Virus genome (UHGV): UHGV-0362799
DNA: 16,858 bases
Direction: 5' to 3' (one strand)
DNA from: a virus
In this document: positions 8,615-16,858 of the stretch, one piece after another
How the letters are laid out: each line of letters begins with the position of its first letter
How positions within the stretch are numbered: the stretch's first letter is position 1
Made by a program: the position numbers and the translations under genes
The notes under the pieces: generated by a model
The model's database searches: none
Seen by the model: only the letters and a program-made list of their open reading frames with translations
What the model was told of the DNA's origin: nothing

Positions 8615-11461
8615 ATGAAATATGGTGCCATTATCACAGCGGCTGGCGCTGCCAGGCTGGCTGCGGCCACAACAGCAACAGGCCAGAAGCTGAACATCAC
8701 TCACATGGCCGTGGGAGATGGTAATGGAAATCTCCCGGAACCATCGGCCTCACAGGCCGCCCTGATCAATGAAGTCTGGCGCGGGACGCTGAATAAAATT
8801 ACACAGAACAGCAAAGCGCCAAATCAGGTGATTGCGGAACTGGTTATTCCTCCGGAAGTTGGCGGCTTCTGGATGCGGGAGCTGGGGTTGTATGACGACA
8901 GCGGAACCCTGATTGCCGTCGCCAATATGGCAGAAAGCTACAAGCCGTTACTCGCCGAAGGTTCGGGGCGCTCAATGGTCTGCCGCATGTTCATCATCAT
9001 CAGCGATATGAACGCGGTGAATCTGTCAGTGGACAGCAGCGTCATTGCCGCAACACAGGAATATGTTAACGAAGCCATCTCCGGCCTGCACCGCGCCATC
9101 ATTGATGATGTGGTTCTTCAGCATAAAGTTGTCCACGATATTGACTACGCCGGTATTTTTGACGGCGCGGATAAGATGAGTCAGGGGTTCTGTATCTGTG
9201 ATACGCCGCAGGGAACCAGAATGTTTCTGCATCAGCCTGTATCGGGTGGCGTAAGGATTGTTGAAACGACATTTAACCCTGACGGAGAAAACGAAAACCC
9301 GACGGTCATTTCGTTTTCTCCCGTTTTCGCTGATATTGGTCACCAGAGTATCGGGGCTGTATGTGAAGACGGTCGCGTGATGCTGTATACCCCGACCGCT
9401 GACGGCAAGGGTGTGAATATCATCAACTGGAATGGGGCTGACACCAGTCTGACAGATGTCACCCGTACGGAGATTTTCACCTCTGACTTTTTTACCGGGG
9501 ATGAAATTATAACGGTGGCATTGTCGGCAGACGGAAGCCTGTTGATTGTTCAGTCAAGTAATGAAGCCGTCCATCTTCATTACAACAGGGATGACCGCCG
9601 CACAGTTTATGTTTTCGATCGCGCTTCTCTGACGTTTAAACACCGGATTTATCTGTCCACCCAGTCAATGGTGTCGCAGGCATTTCAGGGGATGGCCAGC
9701 GATGGTCATTATCTGTTTGCTTATTACGGTTATACAGGCGTATTTCTGACTCACCGCATTGTTGTATATAACCTGTCAACGGGCGAAGTTGTCAGACAGT
9801 TCAATGTGGATGGCGTTCGTGCCAGGTATGGCCGCCAGAAAATGCTGGGGAATGCAGAGCTGGGGTATCCCGTTTTGCAGGAAGCCGAAGGGCTGGCTCT
9901 CCATAACGGAAAACTGTATCTGCTCGATATGGATTTCTGGTGTCAGACAGCCGATGTGGTTTCTTTTGAGGGGGCATACTTTGCAGCACGTGCAACAAAT
10001 TTTTCTGGCCGTTCCCCGGTGAATCCATCTTACTGGACGCCTACAGCATATGGAACGGCGGCTGCAACGAAATATGATGCCACGAAGTCTTATACGTGTG
10101 GCGTGGCGACAAAACGCAGCAAAGCTGTGGTTTCCGTGGAGGCTTACGACGGCACAGGCTATCTGGTGGACTCCGGCGTGGCGTTTCCTGACAGCCATGC
10201 CAGCCTTTTTCTGAGTCCCAATGCTGTAAATATTGCCCTGTCACCCAATGAAGACTTCCAGGTGGCAGCCTATGAGCAGAATCTGCGCTCGCATCGCCCG
10301 TTATTTGAGGTCAGAAAGGAGGCTCCGGATACAGACACTTCTGCTGCTGTTTTTCGTTTGTTCGGGGATGCGTTCCGAACCGGAGAATACACAGGCCGCT
10401 ACGTTCAGTGGAAACACCGACTGAACGCCGTGCACGATTGTCTGGAAATACGCGCTGACGTGGATTTGTTGAGCGGTGGCGGGATTAACCTTTACTCAAT
10501 GAACGATACTCAGTCGGCGGGACGCACAAGGCTTTATTGCACCGATGGCAGTGAAACCTGGTCTGTATTATTGAGTCCGGTCTCGCCGTCATTTCATCCC
10601 GACCAGGACAAGGCAATGAATCTGGGGTCATCGCCAAATCGCTGGAATGTGGCATACCTGCAGGGCGTGAATATTAAATCGGATGACGAAACCCAGAAGC
10701 GCATGACCATCAGCACCACGCTGAAGGCGGGAGCTTTCCAGGTATCAACAGTCGGGAATCTGGGTATTTATGACGATTCTGCTGACGCTTATGTAATTGC
10801 AGCCCGTAGTGACGGCACTGCATTCATGCAGATGGATACAGATATTAACGGTGCATTCCGGCCATCGGTTAACAATACCAGCGACCTGGGTGCGCCCAAC
10901 AAAGCGTTCCGGAGCGTGTATCTCTGCAACTCGCCGACCGTTGTGTCGGATGCGACGTTAAAGGATACACCGCGCGATGCGACGGCAGCCGAAAACGCGG
11001 CATTTGCAGAAATAGCACGGCTTCCGGGCGTGTGGCGCTGGTTACAGAGAATTGAGGAGGAGGGCGAGGACGCGCGTCTGCACGCCGGGCCGACAGTCCA
11101 GGCCGCGATAGCCGTGATGGAGAAACACGGTCTGGACTGGCGGAAATACAGCGCATTTTGTCTGGATTCGTGGGAAGCGGAGGAGGCACAGTACGAAGAT
11201 ATACCGGAAGAGTATGAAGATATTCCGGTTCAGCCAGCGATTTATTCGGATGAAGGGGAGCTGTTGAGCGGGACAACCCGTGTGCTTACCCGACAGGCGG
11301 AAAGGGTTCTTGTTCGCCCTGCAACCGAAGCAGGAAGCCGTTATCGCTTCCGGAAAGAGGAGCTTCTCTGGTGGTGTCTGCGTGCTGTTGTCAGCCAGGT
11401 GGATGCGCTGACAGAGAGTATCAGCGCACTTACCCGCCGTGTTGATTTACTGGAGGAATAA
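8615..11461 (+). CDS. H: Tail fiber protein (gpH family N-terminus; divergent central region; C-terminal intramolecular-chaperone-like domain)
   Basis: 948 aa. N-terminal about 160 aa carries the conserved gpH block ...MAVGDG...ELVIPPEVGGFWMRELGLYDDSGTLIAVANMAESYKP. The rest diverges from P2 H. The C-terminal about 170 aa begins SDATLKD and ends in a predicted helix, resembling peptidase S74-type self-cleaving chaperone domains. Confidence 0.9.
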   Translation: MKYGAIITAAGAARLAAATTATGQKLNITHMAVGDGNGNLPEPSASQAALINEVWRGTLNKITQNSKAPNQVIAELVIPPEVGGFWMRELGLYDDSGTLIAVANMAESYKPLLAEGSGRSMVCRMFIIISDMNAVNLSVDSSVIAATQEYVNEAISGLHRAIIDDVVLQHKVVHDIDYAGIFDGADKMSQGFCICDTPQGTRMFLHQPVSGGVRIVETTFNPDGENENPTVISFSPVFADIGHQSIGAVCEDGRVMLYTPTADGKGVNIINWNGADTSLTDVTRTEIFTSDFFTGDEIITVALSADGSLLIVQSSNEAVHLHYNRDDRRTVYVFDRASLTFKHRIYLSTQSMVSQAFQGMASDGHYLFAYYGYTGVFLTHRIVVYNLSTGEVVRQFNVDGVRARYGRQKMLGNAELGYPVLQEAEGLALHNGKLYLLDMDFWCQTADVVSFEGAYFAARATNFSGRSPVNPSYWTPTAYGTAAATKYDATKSYTCGVATKRSKAVVSVEAYDGTGYLVDSGVAFPDSHASLFLSPNAVNIALSPNEDFQVAAYEQNLRSHRPLFEVRKEAPDTDTSAAVFRLFGDAFRTGEYTGRYVQWKHRLNAVHDCLEIRADVDLLSGGGINLYSMNDTQSAGRTRLYCTDGSETWSVLLSPVSPSFHPDQDKAMNLGSSPNRWNVAYLQGVNIKSDDETQKRMTISTTLKAGAFQVSTVGNLGIYDDSADAYVIAARSDGTAFMQMDTDINGAFRPSVNNTSDLGAPNKAFRSVYLCNSPTVVSDATLKDTPRDATAAENAAFAEIARLPGVWRWLQRIEEEGEDARLHAGPTVQAAIAVMEKHGLDWRKYSAFCLDSWEAEEAQYEDIPEEYEDIPVQPAIYSDEGELLSGTTRVLTRQAERVLVRPATEAGSRYRFRKEELLWWCLRAVVSQVDALTESISALTRRVDLLEE

Positions 11462-11463
11462 TT

Positions 11464-11748
11464 ATGGACTTAACACCGGTGTTCCATGCACTTTGTGCGG
11501 TGGCCGCTCAGTTTCTGGTTGGTCTTTTTACCGGAAACTGGGCTTACGGAGCGATAGCCGGTTGTACGTTCTTCATTGCGCGTGAACACACCCAGGCAGA
11601 ATATCGCTGGATTGAAATGTTCGGGCATGGCAGGCGTATGAATATGCCGTGGTGGGGCGGTTTTGACCCACGAGCGTGGGATATGGCAAGTCTGATGGAT
11701 TTTGCAGTGCCGGTGGTGGCATGTCTGCTGGTCTGGCTGGTCGTATGA
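11464..11748 (+). CDS. Small hypothetical membrane protein, translationally coupled to the tail fiber gene
   Basis: ATG 3 nt after the H stop with excellent RBS GGAGGA 6 nt upstream; 94 aa with two hydrophobic segments (residues about 6-39 and 77-94) flanking a Trp/Arg-rich loop; followed directly by a terminator. No family recognised. Confidence 0.6.
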   Translation: MDLTPVFHALCAVAAQFLVGLFTGNWAYGAIAGCTFFIAREHTQAEYRWIEMFGHGRRMNMPWWGGFDPRAWDMASLMDFAVPVVACLLVWLVV

Positions 11749-11760
11749 CGTAGCAGGAAA

Positions 11761-11785
11761 CAGGGGGATTTGCCCCTGTTTTTTT
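11761..11785 (+). terminator. Rho-independent terminator ending the fiber operon
   Basis: CAGGGG-GATTTG-CCCCTG hairpin followed by TTTTTTT, 13 nt after the stop of the 94-aa gene. Confidence 0.7.
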
Positions 11786-11786
11786 G

Positions 11787-11930
11787 TTCAGAATGCAGCC
11801 TTCACCATTCGTCTCTAATCGTATTCAGTAATTCGCCCGCAGAAACAAACTAAAATTCATCCCCCGCATCACGCCACTGAAAGCAGACGGTAAACTCCAG
11901 ATTTTCAAACCAGCGTCAGAAGTATTTAAA
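11787..11930 (-). pseudogene. Degenerate remnant of a gpU 3' end (frameshifted fragment)
   Basis: About 70-80% nucleotide identity by eye to 12569-12705, the 3' end of the intact U gene. Reverse translation gives ...SAGELLNTIRD then a 1-nt deletion relative to U (...SAGELLNALKDKMPVAAF*). No start codon and no upstream part of the gene. Confidence 0.55.
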
Positions 11931-12151
11931 TGGCACCAGATGTAATATGCAGGCGATTAATATGGTGTGCTTAAAGATCATAAAAGCGGGCAACATTAAA
12001 ACTCCGGGCTGTGTAAATTACCGCCACTCATAATCAGAGATGAAAACAGAATTAAACTGGCGGAGTGGATTGTATACATAAAATAAGTTCAGTTGTTGAC
12101 TTTCACTTCCGTGAATTGATGAAGGTTATTACAATACATCGGTATGATCTC

Positions 12152-12176
12152 TCCTCCTTAAAAGGGAGGACTTTTT
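12152..12176 (+). terminator. Candidate intrinsic terminator
   Basis: TCCTCCT-TAAAA-GGGAGGA hairpin followed by CTTTTT. Confidence 0.45.
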
Positions 12177-12193
12177 AGAACGCAGAAATTATT

Positions 12194-12256
12194 TATAATC
12201 CCGTAGTGTTCTATACATGCAAACATTCTTTTTCCGCCCCGTGCGGGCTTTTTTTT
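12194..12256 (+). ncRNA. Candidate small transcription unit S1 (-10 TATAATCCC to short GC hairpin plus T8)
   Basis: TATAAT at 12194-12199 with AT-rich upstream region; GC stem 12236-12248 followed by T8 (12249-12256); predicted transcript about 50 nt; no convincing ORF or RBS. Confidence 0.25.
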
Positions 12257-12324
12257 GCCGCAAAGATACAGTAACAAACAAAATTGTAATCATGGCAATC
12301 AAAACACGAGAAACATTTTCAGCA

Positions 12325-12353
12325 ATTGCAATAACAAATTAAAATATTGCAAT
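12325..12353. promoter_or_regulatory. Two perfect ATTGCAAT palindromes spaced 21 bp centre to centre (operator-like); a third, imperfect, ATTGTAAT lies at 12283-12290
   Basis: ATTGCAAT at 12325-12332 and 12346-12353; the second overlaps the -35 of the S2 promoter; ATTGTAAT is centred 42 bp upstream of the first. Confidence 0.35.
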
Positions 12354-12376
12354 TGACAATCCCCGCTTAATATAAT
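12347..12376 (+). promoter_or_regulatory. Candidate sigma70 promoter (TTGCAA-N18-TATAAT)
   Basis: TTGCAA 12347-12352 and TATAAT 12371-12376; an alternative -35 TTGACA at 12353-12358 gives only a 12-bp spacer. Confidence 0.4.
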
Positions 12377-12382
12377 CCCTTC

Positions 12383-12444
12383 CGGAACATAGAACATTAA
12401 ATCTTCACACAATGCATGTTGCCCTCTTTATGAGGGCTTTTTTT
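12383..12444 (+). ncRNA. Candidate small RNA S2 (promoter to terminator, about 60 nt)
   Basis: Predicted start about 7 nt after the -10; ends at the GCCCTC-TTTAT-GAGGGC plus T7 terminator (12421-12444); only a 30-aa ORF without RBS runs through the terminator. Confidence 0.3.
12421..12444 (+). terminator. Rho-independent terminator
   Basis: GCCCTC / GAGGGC stem with 5-nt loop followed by TTTTTTT. Confidence 0.65.
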
Positions 12445-12537
12445 ATTTCCAGAATATCACCATTGCCATCATCGGGCGATTTATATATAGTCAGAATGTA
12501 TTGACAACATTTTGCTTCTTTTCCATGAAGGCCATAA

Positions 12538-12567
12538 GGGAGTGCTTTTTACACTCCCTCTTTTTTT
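12538..12567 (+). terminator. Rho-independent terminator (+ strand) abutting the U stop codon
   Basis: GGGAGTG-CTTTTTA-CACTCCC followed by TCTTTTTTT. In the - orientation the hairpin is followed only by UUAU, so it acts mainly on + strand transcription heading into U antisense. Confidence 0.65.
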
Positions 12568-12569
12568 AT

Positions 12570-13028
12570 TCAGAATGCAGCCACAGGCATTTTGTCTTTA
12601 AGCGCGTTCAGCAGTTCGCCCGCAGAAGCAGACTGAAACCGCTCTCTCATATCCTCATCACACCGCTGAAAGCTGATGGAAAACTCAATCTTTTTTGCCT
12701 TTCCGTAACGATCCAGCTCGGAGCGGGTGGTCTGTAATCCTGTAATCACGTACATTCCGTAAATCTGCCCCGTGCCATCAATCAGCGGCCAGGGACATCC
12801 GGTGTAGGCCTGGGTGTTCAGCAGTGTCAGTGACACCTCACCACCGGTAATTTCCGGGTACAACAGACCGGACAGCGTGATCTGATCGTCACCTGCGCCA
12901 ATATACTGCCAGGCCGCAGAGCGGTTAATGCGCTCATTTTTCACATGTCGCCATGTTTTGCTCTGCTGGATCTGCTGATGCGGAAGCGTTTTCAGCTCAA
13001 ACACAAACATGCCAAAAATCATCATCAT
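12570..13028 (-). CDS. U: Tail protein U (gpU family)
   Basis: 152 aa, starts MMMIFGMFVFELKTLPHQQIQQSKTWRHV...LSGLLYPEITGG, recalled as the gpU family signature; RBS AGGAGA upstream; directly downstream of the tape measure gene. Confidence 0.85.
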   Translation of the reverse strand: MMMIFGMFVFELKTLPHQQIQQSKTWRHVKNERINRSAAWQYIGAGDDQITLSGLLYPEITGGEVSLTLLNTQAYTGCPWPLIDGTGQIYGMYVITGLQTTRSELDRYGKAKKIEFSISFQRCDEDMRERFQSASAGELLNALKDKMPVAAF

Positions 13029-13041
13029 AATTGCGTCTCCT

Positions 13042-16000
13042 TTAGTCCCTGTCGCGGAAGCTGTTCATGCCTGTACGCGCCTGTCTGCGCATCTCTTCGC
13101 GGACGGCCTCACCAACCAGTTTTGCCAGTTCGCGCGGATTCTGTGTGTTGACGTTGTGCAGATGTACATGTATCTCACCGGAAAACGCAGCCGCCTGCGG
13201 CTGTGGCGCAGCTTCCCTTCTGGCCGCATCCGGTCGCAACGGGGGCCGGATAGCCTCCGCGACGGGAGCGGAAGCCATTACCGCCCCCGTCATACCTTCA
13301 GCCACGTTACGCGGCTGCGGCAGTGCGGAGACCTGGCGGGCCACGTTCACAACGGGAGCGGGGGCACTCACCGCAGGGGTGGGCAGTACACCTGTCAGTC
13401 TCTGCCAGAGCATTGTCAGTGCATCCGTCAGCCCTACGCCCGCCGATACCGCCTGCACCGTCCGGACAACCTGCGGTGCTTTCCACTCGCCGTGAATGAT
13501 TTCGGATCCGGGCAGATTTTTGAAAACAATATCGCCGGGACCGACGCGCCTGCGTGTTTCCTCAAGAAGCCCGCCGGTGTTGCTGGCGGTTTTCTGTATC
13601 CCCTGCCGGAACCATGCCTCATCCAGCGGGGATTTGCTGCCGGGTTTGCCGACCGGATTGTCCGCCGTTCCCCTCACCTCTCCGGGAACAGCAGGGGCAG
13701 GTACTGCGGGTTTATTGTCACCGTTGTTTTCCGCTGCATCTGATGACCACGACCATGGTTTCTGCACCATTTTTTTCTGTGCAGGATCCCACTCCCACGC
13801 AACCGGCGCTTTTTGTGTGGCCTGTTTTGCGGCGCTCTCCTGGAGTTTTTGCGTCTCCTTCTGTGCCTCTTTGATGCCGTCCGGGATGACACCCAGCCAC
13901 TTCAGCACGGTACCGAGGCCATCAAGGAGCAGCGTCAGCGGCCCCAGCACAATGTTCTGAATGACCCACCCCAGCGTTTTCCCGAACGACTCCCCTGCAC
14001 TGGTGCATTTGTCGAGCGTCTCTTTTGAGGCGTTCGCAGGTTCAAGCAGGCGGGTGAACCACTCCCACACGGCTTTGATGCCGTCGCCAATCAGCCCGAA
14101 CACCGGAGCCAGCGATGCAAAGGCTTGCCGCAGCGGTTGCAGCGCCTCCCACACTCCGGCAAAAAAGCCGGAAAAAAACGCGCTGATCTGATCCCAGTAT
14201 TTCCACACCAGAACCGCGCCGCCCACCAGGGCGGCAACAATCAGCCCGACCGGACTGAACAGCGCCCCCAGTGCGCCCCCCAGTACCGACACCGCCCCCG
14301 TGACCAGCCCCCACAGCGCAGGCAGCCCCGTCAGGCGCAGTGCCATCGCAGACACAAGCCGGACAGCACCACCAATGCCACCGCCCCCCGTCAGCAGCCC
14401 CAGTCCCAGTTGCAGTTTTGCCAGTGGCCCCGCAATCAGCCCGAGCGTCAGTGACAGCGCACCGAACGTGGAAGACAGCGCCAGAACACTACCGCCGGTC
14501 AGCACCAGCCCCCTGACCAGCGCCTGGTGCTCTCCGACCCATTCGCGCATCCGGGTCATCCACGCGCTCACCGTCTGAACCAGCCCGCGCAAATCCTCCG
14601 TCACTGTACCGAAGATGTCCGTGCGTAGCCCTGAGAACGCACCACTCAGCGCCTGAACATCGCCGGAAAGATTACCGCGCAGTGTCTGCCCCATGCGGTC
14701 TGCCACGCCGCTGACATCACCCAGGTTGTCACGGACATCAGCCAGCGCCCTCAGGAACTGCGGGATCTGGTCAACGGAAAGGTCTTCAACGGGTGTGCCG
14801 AACAGCGCAATGGCCGTGTTCGCCCGCTCTGCCGGGTCACGGATGGCCAGCAGTGCACGGGCGGTCACCTGCATCGCCTGACGAGCAGTGCTGCCTCCCT
14901 GTGCAATGGCAGCAGACACCCGCTCAGCATTCAGGCCGAGAGTCTCATACGCTGAGACACTGGATTTCGACATATCCGAACCCCGGATGCTGAACTCCTT
15001 CACGGCATCGCCGGTTTTGTCCAGCGCAAACTTGCCCTGCTTTGCCATCTCAACCAGCAGACTCATTGTCTCGCTGCCGGTGAAGCCCATGTTGCGGAAG
15101 TGGGTGGAATACTCGTGCAGAATTTCCGGCAGTTCATCGCGCATTTCAGCGGACATACGCTGCATCCCTGCCGTCATCAGGTTAGTAGCCTCGTCACTGC
15201 TGGCAGCCAGCCCGTTCTTCATCATGATGGCAGCGGCCTGAATGCTCTGCGGCACATCAACACCAAAGACGGTCCGCATATCCAGCGCACGACGGCTGAT
15301 GCGCTCCAGTTCCCGGTCGCCGGTGTCGCCCAGTGCGCCGAGCGTACTGCGTACCGCACTCACAGCCTCCGCAGCACCGGCAAAATCAGCGAGACCGTCA
15401 GCCTGTATGTTACGAATAATGTGGGTGTAACGTGCGCCATCCTGTGCGCCTTCCCCCGAACCGGCTGCGATGACCGCACCGTGCTGTTCGGACTCCATCG
15501 CCGGAGCCATCATACGCTGCGCCGCATACAGGCCGCCTGTACCCGCCGCCATCGCCACAGCCCCTGTGTTGCGCAGTTTTTCCGCCTGTGCCTTCGCGGC
15601 CTCATAGCGGCTCTGTGCCTGCGTCACGCGAGCCAGTGCCTGCCGTTCGCGCTCGAGCTGCTCGTTGTACTGCTGTGTACGGCGAACGGCACTTTCAATG
15701 GTGCGGCTGCTGCCGGAAAGCAGAATGCCGTGTTTGCGCATTTCCCCTGCCGCCGCCTGAAGTTTTTCGCGCTCACGCGTGCGCAGCTCGTTCAGGCGCT
15801 CAAGCCGTGCAGACAGCGCCGTCATCATCTCCCGCTGCTTTTCAGAGAGGGTGTTGCCGTTCTGCTCTGCCTTTCGCAGTCCGGCGAGCCTCTGCTCCGC
15901 GCGGGCAATCTGTTCGCGGTATTTACTGAGATTTCCGGCGGCACGTTCGAACACCTTCGACTGCCTGTCGAGCGTCTGTATGTTGTCCTGCGTCTTCTGA

Positions 16001-16137
16001 AGGGATTCAGTGAGAGCGCCCACCTGACGGCGGGCGTTTTCGGTCGGGCGTGTCAGCCGGTCAATTGCGCCAAAGCTGACACGAATATCAAGGGATTTCA
16101 CTGTTGCGGACTCCGCTGCGTTGCGCCGCCCGCTCAC
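13042..16137 (-). CDS. T: Tail tape measure protein (gpT family)
   Basis: 1031-aa ORF, GTG start; coiled-coil-rich N-terminus, Gly/Ala-rich hydrophobic central block and Pro/Ala-rich C-terminus, typical of tape measure proteins; position E/E'-T-U. Confidence 0.9.
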   Translation of the reverse strand: MSGRRNAAESATVKSLDIRVSFGAIDRLTRPTENARRQVGALTESLQKTQDNIQTLDRQSKVFERAAGNLSKYREQIARAEQRLAGLRKAEQNGNTLSEKQREMMTALSARLERLNELRTREREKLQAAAGEMRKHGILLSGSSRTIESAVRRTQQYNEQLERERQALARVTQAQSRYEAAKAQAEKLRNTGAVAMAAGTGGLYAAQRMMAPAMESEQHGAVIAAGSGEGAQDGARYTHIIRNIQADGLADFAGAAEAVSAVRSTLGALGDTGDRELERISRRALDMRTVFGVDVPQSIQAAAIMMKNGLAASSDEATNLMTAGMQRMSAEMRDELPEILHEYSTHFRNMGFTGSETMSLLVEMAKQGKFALDKTGDAVKEFSIRGSDMSKSSVSAYETLGLNAERVSAAIAQGGSTARQAMQVTARALLAIRDPAERANTAIALFGTPVEDLSVDQIPQFLRALADVRDNLGDVSGVADRMGQTLRGNLSGDVQALSGAFSGLRTDIFGTVTEDLRGLVQTVSAWMTRMREWVGEHQALVRGLVLTGGSVLALSSTFGALSLTLGLIAGPLAKLQLGLGLLTGGGGIGGAVRLVSAMALRLTGLPALWGLVTGAVSVLGGALGALFSPVGLIVAALVGGAVLVWKYWDQISAFFSGFFAGVWEALQPLRQAFASLAPVFGLIGDGIKAVWEWFTRLLEPANASKETLDKCTSAGESFGKTLGWVIQNIVLGPLTLLLDGLGTVLKWLGVIPDGIKEAQKETQKLQESAAKQATQKAPVAWEWDPAQKKMVQKPWSWSSDAAENNGDNKPAVPAPAVPGEVRGTADNPVGKPGSKSPLDEAWFRQGIQKTASNTGGLLEETRRRVGPGDIVFKNLPGSEIIHGEWKAPQVVRTVQAVSAGVGLTDALTMLWQRLTGVLPTPAVSAPAPVVNVARQVSALPQPRNVAEGMTGAVMASAPVAEAIRPPLRPDAARREAAPQPQAAAFSGEIHVHLHNVNTQNPRELAKLVGEAVREEMRRQARTGMNSFRDRD

Positions 16138-16635
16138 GCCAGCTCATCACCTCGACGAGAGGCATTGAGAATATCTCGCCGGGCGACCAGTTAAACACGA
16201 CTGCTATATCGGCGACCAGTTCTTCAACGTTGTCGAACTTCGCCAGCGTGATTACGCTTCCATCACCGCCACGGACGGTTTCGCAGACTCCGTGGGAGCC
16301 AAAAAATTCGCCACCAGAGTAGCCAGCGCCACGAAATCACCGGTGGACAGTGACTGAATTTCTGCCAGCTTCAGGCGTGGTGCGGTCACGCGCGAAAGCA
16401 ATGTCATCACCGGGTCTGTTTTGAGGTTCAGCACCTCAATCAGCGACAGCCCGCGCAGTGAGCCTGCCTGGCGGATTTCCTCGCCAATCTCCACATAGTC
16501 AATAACGCGTTCGCCACGCACCACCGGGCAGGATAACTGCACACCCGTTTTTTCCTCTGCGGCTTCTGCGTTATCCACGGTGTTTTCCTCTGCAACGATT
16601 TCGTCTTTCATGATGTCATCTTTCTTTGCTGCCAT
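16088..16635 (-). CDS. Tail assembly chaperone frameshift product E+E' (-1 programmed frameshift)
   Basis: Slippery heptamer T_TTT_TTG on the - strand (+ coords 16300-16306) inside E. The -1 frame continues 70 codons (GSHGVCETVRGGDGSVITLAKFDNVEELVADIAVVFNWSPGEIFSMPLVEVMSWRERAAQRSGVRNSEIP) to a TGA at 16088-16090, overlapping the T start by about 50 nt as in P2 E/E'/T. Confidence 0.6.
16252..16635 (-). CDS. E: Tail assembly chaperone (gpE family)
   Basis: 127-aa ORF upstream of T with RBS AGGAGAAAG; contains the P2-type slippery site; acidic N-terminal extension (true start may be the internal Met 9). Confidence 0.8.
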   Translation of the reverse strand: MAAKKDDIMKDEIVAEENTVDNAEAAEEKTGVQLSCPVVRGERVIDYVEIGEEIRQAGSLRGLSLIEVLNLKTDPVMTLLSRVTAPRLKLAEIQSLSTGDFVALATLVANFLAPTESAKPSVAVMEA

Positions 16636-16650
16636 TTTTCTTTCTCCTGT

Positions 16651-16669
16651 GGCGGCACAATGTGCCGCC
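16651..16669 (-). promoter_or_regulatory. Intercistronic stem-loop between the tail tube gene and E
   Basis: Palindrome GGCGGCAC-AAT-GTGCCGCC (8-bp stem) between the tube gene stop (16682-16684) and the E RBS; no U-tract. Confidence 0.4.
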
Positions 16670-16681
16670 CTGTTAATGCTG

Positions 16682-16858
16682 TCAGTTCAGACCGAGCGCC
16701 GAACTCACGCGATCGCCAAAGACGTTCTGGCCGTCTTTTTTGTAGATGAAGTTCAGCAGGTCGATTTCTGTCACATCGCTGTCATCCACCGACTCCTTGT
16801 AGTAGGTGTTTTTGACGGCGAAGGTGTACTGTGTGGTGTCGCCCTGTTTGGTTTCGCC
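16682..16858 (-). CDS. FII: Tail tube protein (gpFII-like), 3' partial; 5' end lies beyond the window
   Basis: Open frame on the - strand from the window edge to TGA at 16682-16684 (…GETKQGDTTQYTFAVKNTYYKESVDDSDVTEIDLLNFIYKKDGQNVFGDRVSSALGLN*); position immediately upstream of E/E'/T matches the tail tube gene. Not in the ORF track because it has no start codon in the window. Confidence 0.6.
   Translation of the reverse strand, partial: GETKQGDTTQYTFAVKNTYYKESVDDSDVTEIDLLNFIYKKDGQNVFGDRVSSALGLN

Follow-up and report, generated by a model that had tools for sequence, protein, structure and literature searches.

The window, a 16,858-nucleotide stretch of virus genome UHGV-0362799, belongs to a P2-like Escherichia coli prophage. 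Directly downstream of the genes identified in a Pfam search as Baseplate_J and Tail_P2_I, it encodes a 948-residue receptor-binding tail protein (Table 1), which matches phrog_19921 ('tail spike protein') over its full length with 2057 bits. Sequence comparisons divide this protein into three parts: a gpH-type anchor, a body of ~620 residues and, at the C-terminus, an intramolecular chaperone (IMC) of the Peptidase_S74 type. The PF12571 anchor and the late-operon place after J and I are those of canonical P2 gpH, whereas the sequence past residue ~158 is unrelated to P2 gpH, and the cognate gpG (Caudo_TAP, PF02413) that is encoded immediately downstream in P2 is absent here. The H stop codon (11459–11461) is followed after 2 nt by orf94, which encodes a 94-residue membrane protein. 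In the records examined, the only names given to the spike gene by PGAP are 'phage tail-collar fiber domain-containing protein' and 'phage tail protein'.

Table 1. Coordinates of the features at the H locus, numbered from the first letter of the window
Feature	Position	Strand	Evidence or remark
gpH-type receptor-binding tail protein	8615..11461	+	ORF list and translation; 948 aa, 103.9 kDa precursor
N-terminal P2 tail-collar/baseplate anchor, aa 2-148	8618..9058	+	PF12571 Phage_tail_fib, E = 6e-54
Receptor-binding body, very probably imported, aa ~159-777	9089..10945	+	78% identity to Pollock gp75, AlphaFold2, Foldseek
Predicted autocleavage site Val777/Ser778 and dyad	10943..10963	+	Alignment to 3gw6 and 4uw8
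Peptidase_S74-type intramolecular chaperone, aa 778-948	10946..11458	+	PF13884, PDB and fold matches; predicted 19.4 kDa fragment
Terminal amphipathic helix, predicted trimeric coiled coil, aa 914-947	11354..11455	+	AlphaFold2 helix (model residues 760-793), heptad pattern
orf94, small three-helix membrane protein	11464..11748	+	Last operon gene; phrog_1443 'unknown function'
AT-rich gap, 34-40% GC, expected G place	11749..12569	.	No wholly internal ORF >41 aa
Terminator-like hairpin and T-run, end of V-W-J-I-H-orf94 transcription unit	11763..11787	+	Consensus match only
gpU	12570-13028	-	PF06995 GpU; next gene after AT-rich gap

The C-terminal domain is an S74-type intramolecular chaperone

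The initial annotation had likened the end of the protein to the S74-type chaperone of endosialidases, pointing to a start at SDATLKD, the motif LPGVWRWLQ, a hydrophobic stretch and an amphipathic end helix, and had named a search against PF13884 as a check. Every element quoted is present in the translation: SDATLKD starts at residue 778 (nt 10946), LPGVWRWLQ spans residues 801–809, GPTVQAAIAVM spans residues 825–835, and the protein ends in ...WWCLRAVVSQVDALTESISALTRRVDLLEE. The search against Pfam bears the likeness out. PF13884 matches with 38.1 bits (E = 2e-9; gathering cutoff, 22 bits), all 58 profile positions (1–58/58) aligning to residues 778–840, so that the domain begins exactly at the predicted serine; the isolated C-terminus alone scores 41.7 bits. 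The domain occupies the extreme C-terminus (residues 778–948 of 948), right after the stalk.

Six solved IMC-containing proteins match by sequence (4uw8, 7y5s, 6eu4, 9vvr, 3gw6 and 3gud), far beyond chance. The best of them is the L-shaped tail fibre pb1 of phage T5 (4uw8), with E = 1.5e-15 by single-sequence search and 1.4e-22 by family profile. The endosialidase endoNF of coliphage K1F (MEROPS S74, 3gw6) is matched by family profile at 1.2e-12, with nearly the whole chaperone covered. A Foldseek search with the AlphaFold2 model retrieved the same two structures (4uw8, E = 1.8e-7; 3gw6, E = 4.1e-7; probability 1.00) with low TM-scores, because the query is a monomer model of a multidomain protein. 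In this model the IMC is predicted with moderate confidence only, and pLDDT falls below 50 at residues ~652–786, in the stalk.

The resemblance to T5 pb1 extends to an SDA.LK-type site (Ser1264) and to a distal AG.(R/H)Y.FR.EEL block ahead of the terminal helix, in which AGSRYRFRKEEL pairs with AGDHYSFRLEEL of T5. With endoNF, the domain shares its location after a stalk, an aligned Ser/Lys dyad, and a conserved helix/beta region followed by a terminal coiled coil. An acidic insert at residues ~852–905 of the IMC sets it apart from the long loop of endoNF. The terminal helix shows a heptad register, with strongly hydrophobic residues at 9 of the 10 a/d positions as against 19% elsewhere; a 'leucine zipper' is a family feature of this type of IMC (PMC3742443).

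The predicted cleavage site and its catalytic residues

The presumed scissile bond precedes Ser778 (10946–10948), which has Asp779 next to it and Lys783 (10961–10963) at position +5. The site aligns with 'ANGERK' of the endoNF S911A structure (3gw6) and 'ADARLK' of the T5 pb1 S1264A structure (4uw8). Ser778 and Lys783 correspond to Ser911 and Lys916 of endoNF, and Ser778 also to Ser1264 of T5 pb1. The roles of the serine and lysine residues in IMCs of the endoNF and T5 pb1 type are documented (PMC3742443, PMC8326128, PMC4690869), and the same spacing of a serine and a lysine at +5 is found in endoNF (S911/K916) and in MyRF (S587/K592) (PMC8326128).

By homology with endoNF and T5 pb1, we propose the following course of assembly. 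The anchor of ~155 residues would plug into the P2 baseplate. Three C-terminal domains would join via the coiled coil, and from this nucleus the stalk and body upstream would trimerise and fold. In a trimer that has reached its correct fold, Lys783 would activate Ser778 for a cut between Val777 and Ser778, freeing a 19.4-kDa fragment and leaving a mature chain of 84.4 kDa on the virion. A separate gene of the gpG type would not be needed by such a cassette, because its folding helper is built in. Self-cleavage, trimerisation and dependence on the chaperone are predicted from homology.

Alternatively, the S74 domain might be present yet no longer processed, so that the mature protein keeps it for good, either to cap the C-terminus or to hold the trimer together; we consider this reading improbable. 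It draws on position -14, where the stalk residue Arg897 of endoNF assists cleavage and the present protein has Ala764. The stalk arginine varies among relatives, and an arginine is found here at position -12 (Arg766). Against this reading, the FRxxYL motif of the solved spike 6eu4 is arranged likewise, its Arg also at -12, and MyRF cuts itself without needing any stalk residue (PMC8326128). In one relative, P0046, a cysteine replaces the nucleophilic serine, which would also fit a retained domain, but a cysteine could act as nucleophile too. Serine, aspartate and lysine are intact here and kept in 9 of the 10 IMC-bearing relatives. In favour of a retained domain, two relatives share the body but end in another C-terminus that is no IMC, so the body is not strictly dependent on the IMC. 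Predicted autocleavage at Ser778 is the reading we prefer.

A globular all-beta body on a repeat-containing stalk

The protein resembles a tailspike-type receptor-binding protein (RBP) with a globular all-beta body, rather than a thin fibre. AlphaFold2 predicts a confident all-beta domain at residues ~164–514, then a beta-sandwich region and then the stalk. The best Foldseek matches for the confident part of the model are the Staphylococcus phage proteins phi11 Gp45, 80alpha RBP and P68 fibre, all RBPs with a five-bladed beta-propeller platform (E ~1e-12; global TM only 0.25–0.38), and residues ~164–514 probably form a beta-propeller platform. This assignment derives from fold similarity, because a family-profile sequence search gave no support for kinship with RBPs of the phi11/80alpha/P68 type. 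The profile of the 5-bladed beta-propeller platform (PF21311) scores 11.5 bits, below its cutoff of 23.7, and a weak signal also occurs in the related Gally tailspike. Unlike the protein studied here, the phi11, 80alpha and P68 proteins have no S74 domain, and they show no significant sequence similarity to it.

The stalk contains two 'xLGxxxxxW/FxxxYL' repeats (residues 669–684 and 757–772), and these LGxxxxxFxxxYL repeats align with the stalks of endoNF and 6eu4. The domain order, from the anchor through a beta-rich domain (catalytic or receptor) and a stalk to the IMC, is also that of endoNF, a protein of a T7-like podovirus rather than a P2-type myovirus. The body, by contrast, has no sequence kinship with endoNF. 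We rejected an endosialidase catalytic identity: PF12219 reaches 14.9 bits (cutoff, 25), and the short stretch concerned (residues 659–684) falls in a stalk repeat. From T5 pb1 the protein differs in its anchor and phage type, and in that pb1 carries a bullet-shaped receptor domain tipping a long fibre, whereas here a globular body, probably of the propeller type, takes that role.

The receptor-binding cassette is shared between different chassis

The tail spike gp75 of Escherichia phage Pollock, an N4-like podovirus, shares 78% identity with residues 159–947. Body, stalk, cleavage motif and IMC are all covered by this match, and in Pollock, too, no chaperone gene follows; its anchor is Tail_spike_N (PF18668), in contrast to PF12571 here. 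The Pollock genome announcement says nothing on gp75. Set against its counterpart in a P2 prophage of canonical gene order, the protein shows sharp recombination junctions at residues ~165 and ~930: the anchors are 58–68% identical, while the rest of the protein, the cassette, is 97–100% identical. GC content shifts along the cassette, falling to ~49–52% in the body.

This cassette stands behind four types of anchor: P2/HP1 (PF12571), Mu-type, N4-like (PF18668) and T7-like (PF03906). No Caudo_TAP gene lies downstream of the cassette in Pollock, E. coli B, MIN14, CFSAN061763, or the HP1-like and T7-like contigs. Among complete E. coli genomes, 87 of 5426 have a match to the spike gene. The initial annotation had suggested a swap of the fibre module for a self-chaperoning type, and the identity to a podovirus spike, the contrast between cassette and anchor, and the four anchor types without a chaperone gene all support it directly. 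They document a self-chaperoning cassette that is exchanged whole among chassis of myoviruses (P2/HP1, Mu) and podoviruses (N4-like, T7-like), the recombination falling just past the anchor. We therefore regard it as very likely that H encodes a P2-type tail protein of mosaic origin, in which the first ~155 residues are anchor and the remainder is an imported receptor-binding cassette with a terminal IMC.

Absence of G and the identity of the gene that follows H

The absence of a gpG-like gene after H, also noted initially, holds throughout the window. A tblastn search with P2 gpG against all six frames returned a best E of 0.64, at an unrelated place. None of the large ORFs of the window matched PF02413, a profile that P2 G itself matched in a control. 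A candidate G remnant, a 14-residue match to the N-terminus of G at 11962–12003 (E = 2.7, tblastn), was taken as chance. The expected place of G is occupied by the AT-rich gap, where an Rfam scan found no significant family.

The initial annotation had also placed a membrane protein in the position of G. The 94-residue frame is there, with hydrophobic segments at residues ~5–23 and ~76–94, and AlphaFold2 predicts three helices (pLDDT 94.6); in a functional sense, though, the gene does not hold the place of G, for its family is a distinct one whose members are seen behind IMC-less fibres as well. Searches of Pfam, NCBIfam and PADLOC gave no family match, and Foldseek gave no fold match in the PDB or BFVD. 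Homologues form at least 582 clusters in a large protein database, all 'hypothetical', and close many receptor-binding modules on their 3' side, whether an IMC is present or not. The inter-helix loop of the family is near-invariant across genera.

That orf94 is a non-homologous replacement of gpG, a membrane-associated factor needed for assembly or attachment of the fibre, is very improbable in our judgement. Its start just behind H (gap of 2 nt), its place as the last gene of the H operon, the location of its homologues, which is always 3' in receptor-binding modules, and the almost unchanged loop would suit such a role. However, canonical-order P2 prophages with a 97–100% identical cassette have no orf94, and neither do Pollock and the T7-like contig. 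Conversely, homologues follow RBPs that lack PF13884 (the Gally tailspike and phage 21 Stf), and the phiHAP-1 homologue lies behind a fibre for which an assembly protein is annotated already. Nor is a folding chaperone of the cytoplasm likely to be an integral membrane protein with three helices. Homology to gpG or Caudo_TAP was likewise rejected, given the lack of any PF02413 match and the predicted three-helix membrane topology as opposed to soluble gpG. So was the idea that orf94 is a specific companion of IMC fibres: Gally and phage 21 have it without an IMC, and it is missing beside the IMC in Pollock, the T7-like contig, E. coli B and CFSAN061763. We conclude that orf94 does not substitute for G but is cargo that neighbours the receptor-binding module.

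It is a speculative and rather doubtful proposal that orf94 (phrog_1443) marks a widespread, unrecognised class of accessory proteins, three-helix and of the inner membrane, with a near-invariant loop, whose genes travel 3' of RBP cassettes in phages of the P2, Mu, lambda, P22 and Hapuna types and whose role is linked to the neighbouring RBP. If it is true, an example of such a role would be masking or modifying the receptor pathway, either to exclude superinfecting phages or to prevent progeny re-adsorption.

The notion that loss of G reflects prophage decay, leaving a fibre unable to fold and the element defective, is hardly credible: pseudogenes surround the E. coli B copy and an IS21 element interrupts the tape-measure gene of CFSAN061763, but a near-identical C7 prophage has all late genes annotated intact, the spike is an intact CDS in 29 of the 30 records listed (from the 87 genomes with a match), and the G-less architecture recurs in lytic phages (Pollock, the T7-like contig), where it is necessarily functional.

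Discussion

Import of a cassette that brings its own chaperone explains the apparent gap in the P2-type late operon, where G is missing, without decay. S74 IMCs are a well-known type of domain and the case is one of ordinary phage module swapping, so our understanding of IMC domains is unchanged by it. A literature search found nothing specific on a natural P2-type H protein with an IMC, on the fibre of the E. coli B P2 prophage or on the Pollock spike. Prophage annotation may profit, as the PGAP labels are uninformative about the IMC spike.

A lesser reading would take phages of the type found in the window as proof from nature that self-chaperoning RBPs in podovirus style can be mounted on the P2 baseplate in the complete absence of G. 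A cassette with its own chaperone should be portable, which helps in engineering R-type tailocins or phages of the P2 type: a swap past residue ~158 would suffice, with no partner chaperone to co-transfer.

The C terminus of H is an S74-type chaperone domain

All motifs quoted in the initial annotation for a self-cleaving C-terminal chaperone are found in the translation of H, the gpH-type receptor-binding tail protein, and SDATLKD begins at aa 778 (nt 10946), exactly where it had been placed. The Pfam search proposed there returned a full-length match to PF13884 (Peptidase_S74, 'chaperone of endosialidase') at aa 778–840, with a score of 38.1 bits where the gathering cutoff is 22 bits. Six proteins in the PDB matched the sequence of the C-terminal 211 residues: best was the L-shaped tail fibre pb1 of T5 (4uw8, E = 1.5e-15), the others being a Klebsiella fibre (7y5s), the tail spikes 6eu4 and 9vvr, and the chaperones of endoNF (3gw6) and of the GA-1 neck appendage (3gud). 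A family-profile search strengthened these matches (4uw8, 1.4e-22; 3gw6, 1.2e-12; 3gud, 5.6e-8), and the match to 3gw6 spans nearly the whole intramolecular chaperone (IMC). The distal block of the IMC reads AGSRYRFRKEEL in H and AGDHYSFRLEEL in T5, and the terminal helix forms a clean heptad that is hydrophobic at 9 of 10 a/d positions.

SDATLK of H aligns with ANGERK of 3gw6 and ADARLK of 4uw8, both of which were crystallised as Ser-to-Ala mutants. Because these mutated motifs align with SDATLK, Ser778 and Lys783 are the counterparts of Ser911 and Lys916, the indispensable catalytic dyad of endoNF (PMC8326128; PMC3742443). The Asp directly after Ser778 is also present in H, and Ser, Asp and Lys are kept in nine of ten IMC-bearing relatives, with Cys replacing Ser in one. 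That relative, P0046, has a T7-type anchor and reads VCDARLK around the nucleophile position (alignment A1, Ser778 column); its Cys could mark a thiol version of the S74 dyad, or a sequencing error could explain it. While endoNF has a stalk arginine, Arg897, at position -14, H has Ala764 there and Arg766 at -12, as in 6eu4. This residue varies across the family, and MyRF does not need it (PMC8326128). An acidic insert with partial repeats (YEDIPEEYEDIP...; aa 852–905; 14 D/E versus 4 K/R) also lies in the IMC, and a 31-residue piece of it is deleted in T7-anchor relatives; it is a variable loop within an otherwise conserved chaperone.

Predicted structure and maturation of H

The AlphaFold2 monomer model of H has a mean pLDDT of 64.6. 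The IMC is modelled with moderate confidence as helices, beta-hairpins and a long helix at the end, which fits how the T5 chaperone has been described in print, and Foldseek recovered 4uw8 and 3gw6 for the C terminus. The stalk is modelled poorly, which is to be expected when an intertwined trimer is predicted as a single chain. Residues ~164–514 are confidently predicted to be all-beta, and the top Foldseek matches (E ~1e-12) are Gp45 of staphylococcal phage phi11, the RBP of 80alpha and the fibre of P68, which are all five-bladed propeller platform RBPs. In line with a propeller, PF21311 gave sub-threshold matches both in H and in the Gally tailspike, a distant relative (27% identity). Since a profile-sequence search gave no support for a propeller in the H body, we only tentatively assign it as a beta-propeller platform.

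By homology, three IMC domains would nucleate trimer formation and folding of the stalk. Ser778 and Lys783 would then cut before Ser778, yielding an 84.4-kDa mature chain and a released fragment of 19.4 kDa. The analysis shows what the domain is, which catalytic residues it has and which genes surround it; cutting and a part in folding are inferred from its homologues.

No G gene accompanies H, and orf94 does not replace it

P2-type fibres share a common N-terminal collar domain with a swappable remainder, and their chaperones are normally adjacent and downstream (PMC6363177). The reported lack of a G gene held: a search of all frames of the window detected no relative of P2 gpG (PF02413; best match E = 0.64, at an unrelated position), none of the large window ORFs matched PF02413 in Pfam, and no ORF longer than 41 aa lies wholly inside the gap after orf94.

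The protein encoded by orf94 had no match in Pfam, NCBIfam or PADLOC and belongs to phrog_1443, of unknown function; its homologues form at least 582 clusters (Enterobacteriaceae, Aeromonas, Comamonas), every one labelled hypothetical. Its AlphaFold2 model, of very high confidence (pLDDT 94.6), has three helices with a near-invariant inter-helix loop (AREHTQAEYRWI..G.GKR.NMPWWGGFD), and the family is predicted to consist of three-helix membrane proteins. A fold search of the model against PDB and BFVD found no relatives. The homologues are always the final (3'-end) gene of the receptor-binding module, whether the phage is of the P2, Mu, lambda, P22 or Hapuna type: in lambdoid phage 21, Lambda_2E9 and HannyBb, P22-like Gally, the Mu/e14-like prophage MIN14, a different fibre cassette carried on the inverted P2-like backbone seen in the window, and Hapunavirus phiHAP-1, where the homologue comes after an annotated tail-fibre assembly gene. 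Because orf94 is not IMC-specific and is missing from canonical P2 prophages with this same spike, it is not a stand-in for G, in whose place it had been put. A role as an IMC-specific partner was likewise rejected.

The spike cassette occurs behind different anchors

The tail spike gp75 of Pollock, an N4-like podovirus, is 78% identical to H from aa 159 to the end but has a PF18668 anchor rather than PF12571. Among database relatives, the H body with the IMC behind it (the cassette) follows P2/HP1-type (PF12571), Mu-type baseplate, N4-like (PF18668) and T7 tail-fibre (PF03906) anchors. In none of the genomic contexts inspected is the cassette followed by a Caudo_TAP gene; a T7-like contig has the holin gene next, which is also the order in T7. 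Of 5426 complete E. coli genomes, 87 carry the cassette.

We compared H with the cassette copy of canonical-order P2 prophages (E. coli B, CFSAN061763). Identity is only 58–68% over the anchor (aa 1–165), 97–100% over aa 166–929 and 47% over the last 19 residues, and these sharp junctions suggest that the cassette was recently transferred from one P2 lineage to another. The GC content is ~60% in J/I and drops to 49–52% in the H body.

Two relatives (P0048 and P0049; alignment A1) have a body ~50% identical to that of H and lack the IMC, ending in a short, different C terminus (...GSPEGVLTAAPGSEYRRLDGG..TFKYQKQSGTGNTGWAAIA); the same body can therefore end in a non-S74 module. In canonical-order P2 prophages with this spike, the next locus is the Z/fun cargo site, which encodes a glycosyltransferase on the opposite strand, which could be a surface-glycan-modifying lysogenic conversion gene. 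The inverted backbone of the window also occurs in E. coli SCU-172 with another fibre cassette, which, like that of phage 21, encodes a fibre (here 593 aa), a small protein (92 aa) and a homologue of orf94. Gene I is truncated there and Caudo_TAP is again absent; the 92-aa protein may be a small helper belonging to that cassette.

A P2-like backbone with an inverted tail block

Pfam matches on the plus strand (GPO scaffold, P2 major capsid, small terminase, gpL, gpS, gpV, gpW/gp25, Baseplate_J and Tail_P2_I) identify the window as the late region of a P2-like prophage. The full layout is visible in a near-identical prophage of E. coli C7, which ST131 strains, among others, also carry. Its FI-FII-E-T-U block runs in the opposite orientation to that of P2; D and ogr lie beyond the block, and the insertion is near flk/fabB. 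This backbone is a distinct P2-like type, present in ST131 and other E. coli lineages. The AT-rich gap is 94–99% conserved across 67 E. coli genomes and holds seven plus-strand terminator-like hairpins versus 2.0 +/- 1.4 expected; it had no significant match in Rfam.

Coordinates of features in the window and in comparison loci (L numbers)
Feature	Location	Strand	Remarks
H, 948-aa ORF	8615-11461	+	after Baseplate_J / Tail_P2_I
IMC acidic insert	11168-11329		
orf94, 94 aa	11464-11748	+	downstream of H
AT-rich gap, 820 bp	11749-12569		GC 34-40%; between convergent H-orf94 and U-T units
gpU, then tape-measure gene	beyond AT-rich gap	-	Pfam
Inverted FI-FII-E-T-U block	12570-16858	-	D, ogr on plus strand beyond
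Inverted FI-FII-E-T-U block	L001:23385-28937		
orf94 family	L004:5980-6273; L005:5995-6294; L007:9374-9661; L008:4501-4806; L010:4501-4788; L011:4501-4794; L012:6025-6318		
Glycosyltransferase	L006:9581-10942; L016:18579-19691	-	canonical-order P2 prophages
SCU-172 fibre cassette	L012:3183-6318		

Place among known systems

S74-type IMCs are widespread: homologues of the one in H alone occur in 417 phage records, among them the K5 lyase, the endosialidase of CUS-3 and fibres of the T5 type, and no P2-sized genome was among the matches listed. A published catalogue already lists S74 domains on the fibres of contractile injection systems (PMC12923769), and the full-length H architecture is already a PHROG (phrog_19921); in our literature search, no account of a natural P2-type H that carries an IMC turned up. 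The proposal of a module swap for an S74-type fibre is supported, the fibre presumably folding and cleaving itself. H represents a clean, well-documented case of modular RBP exchange.
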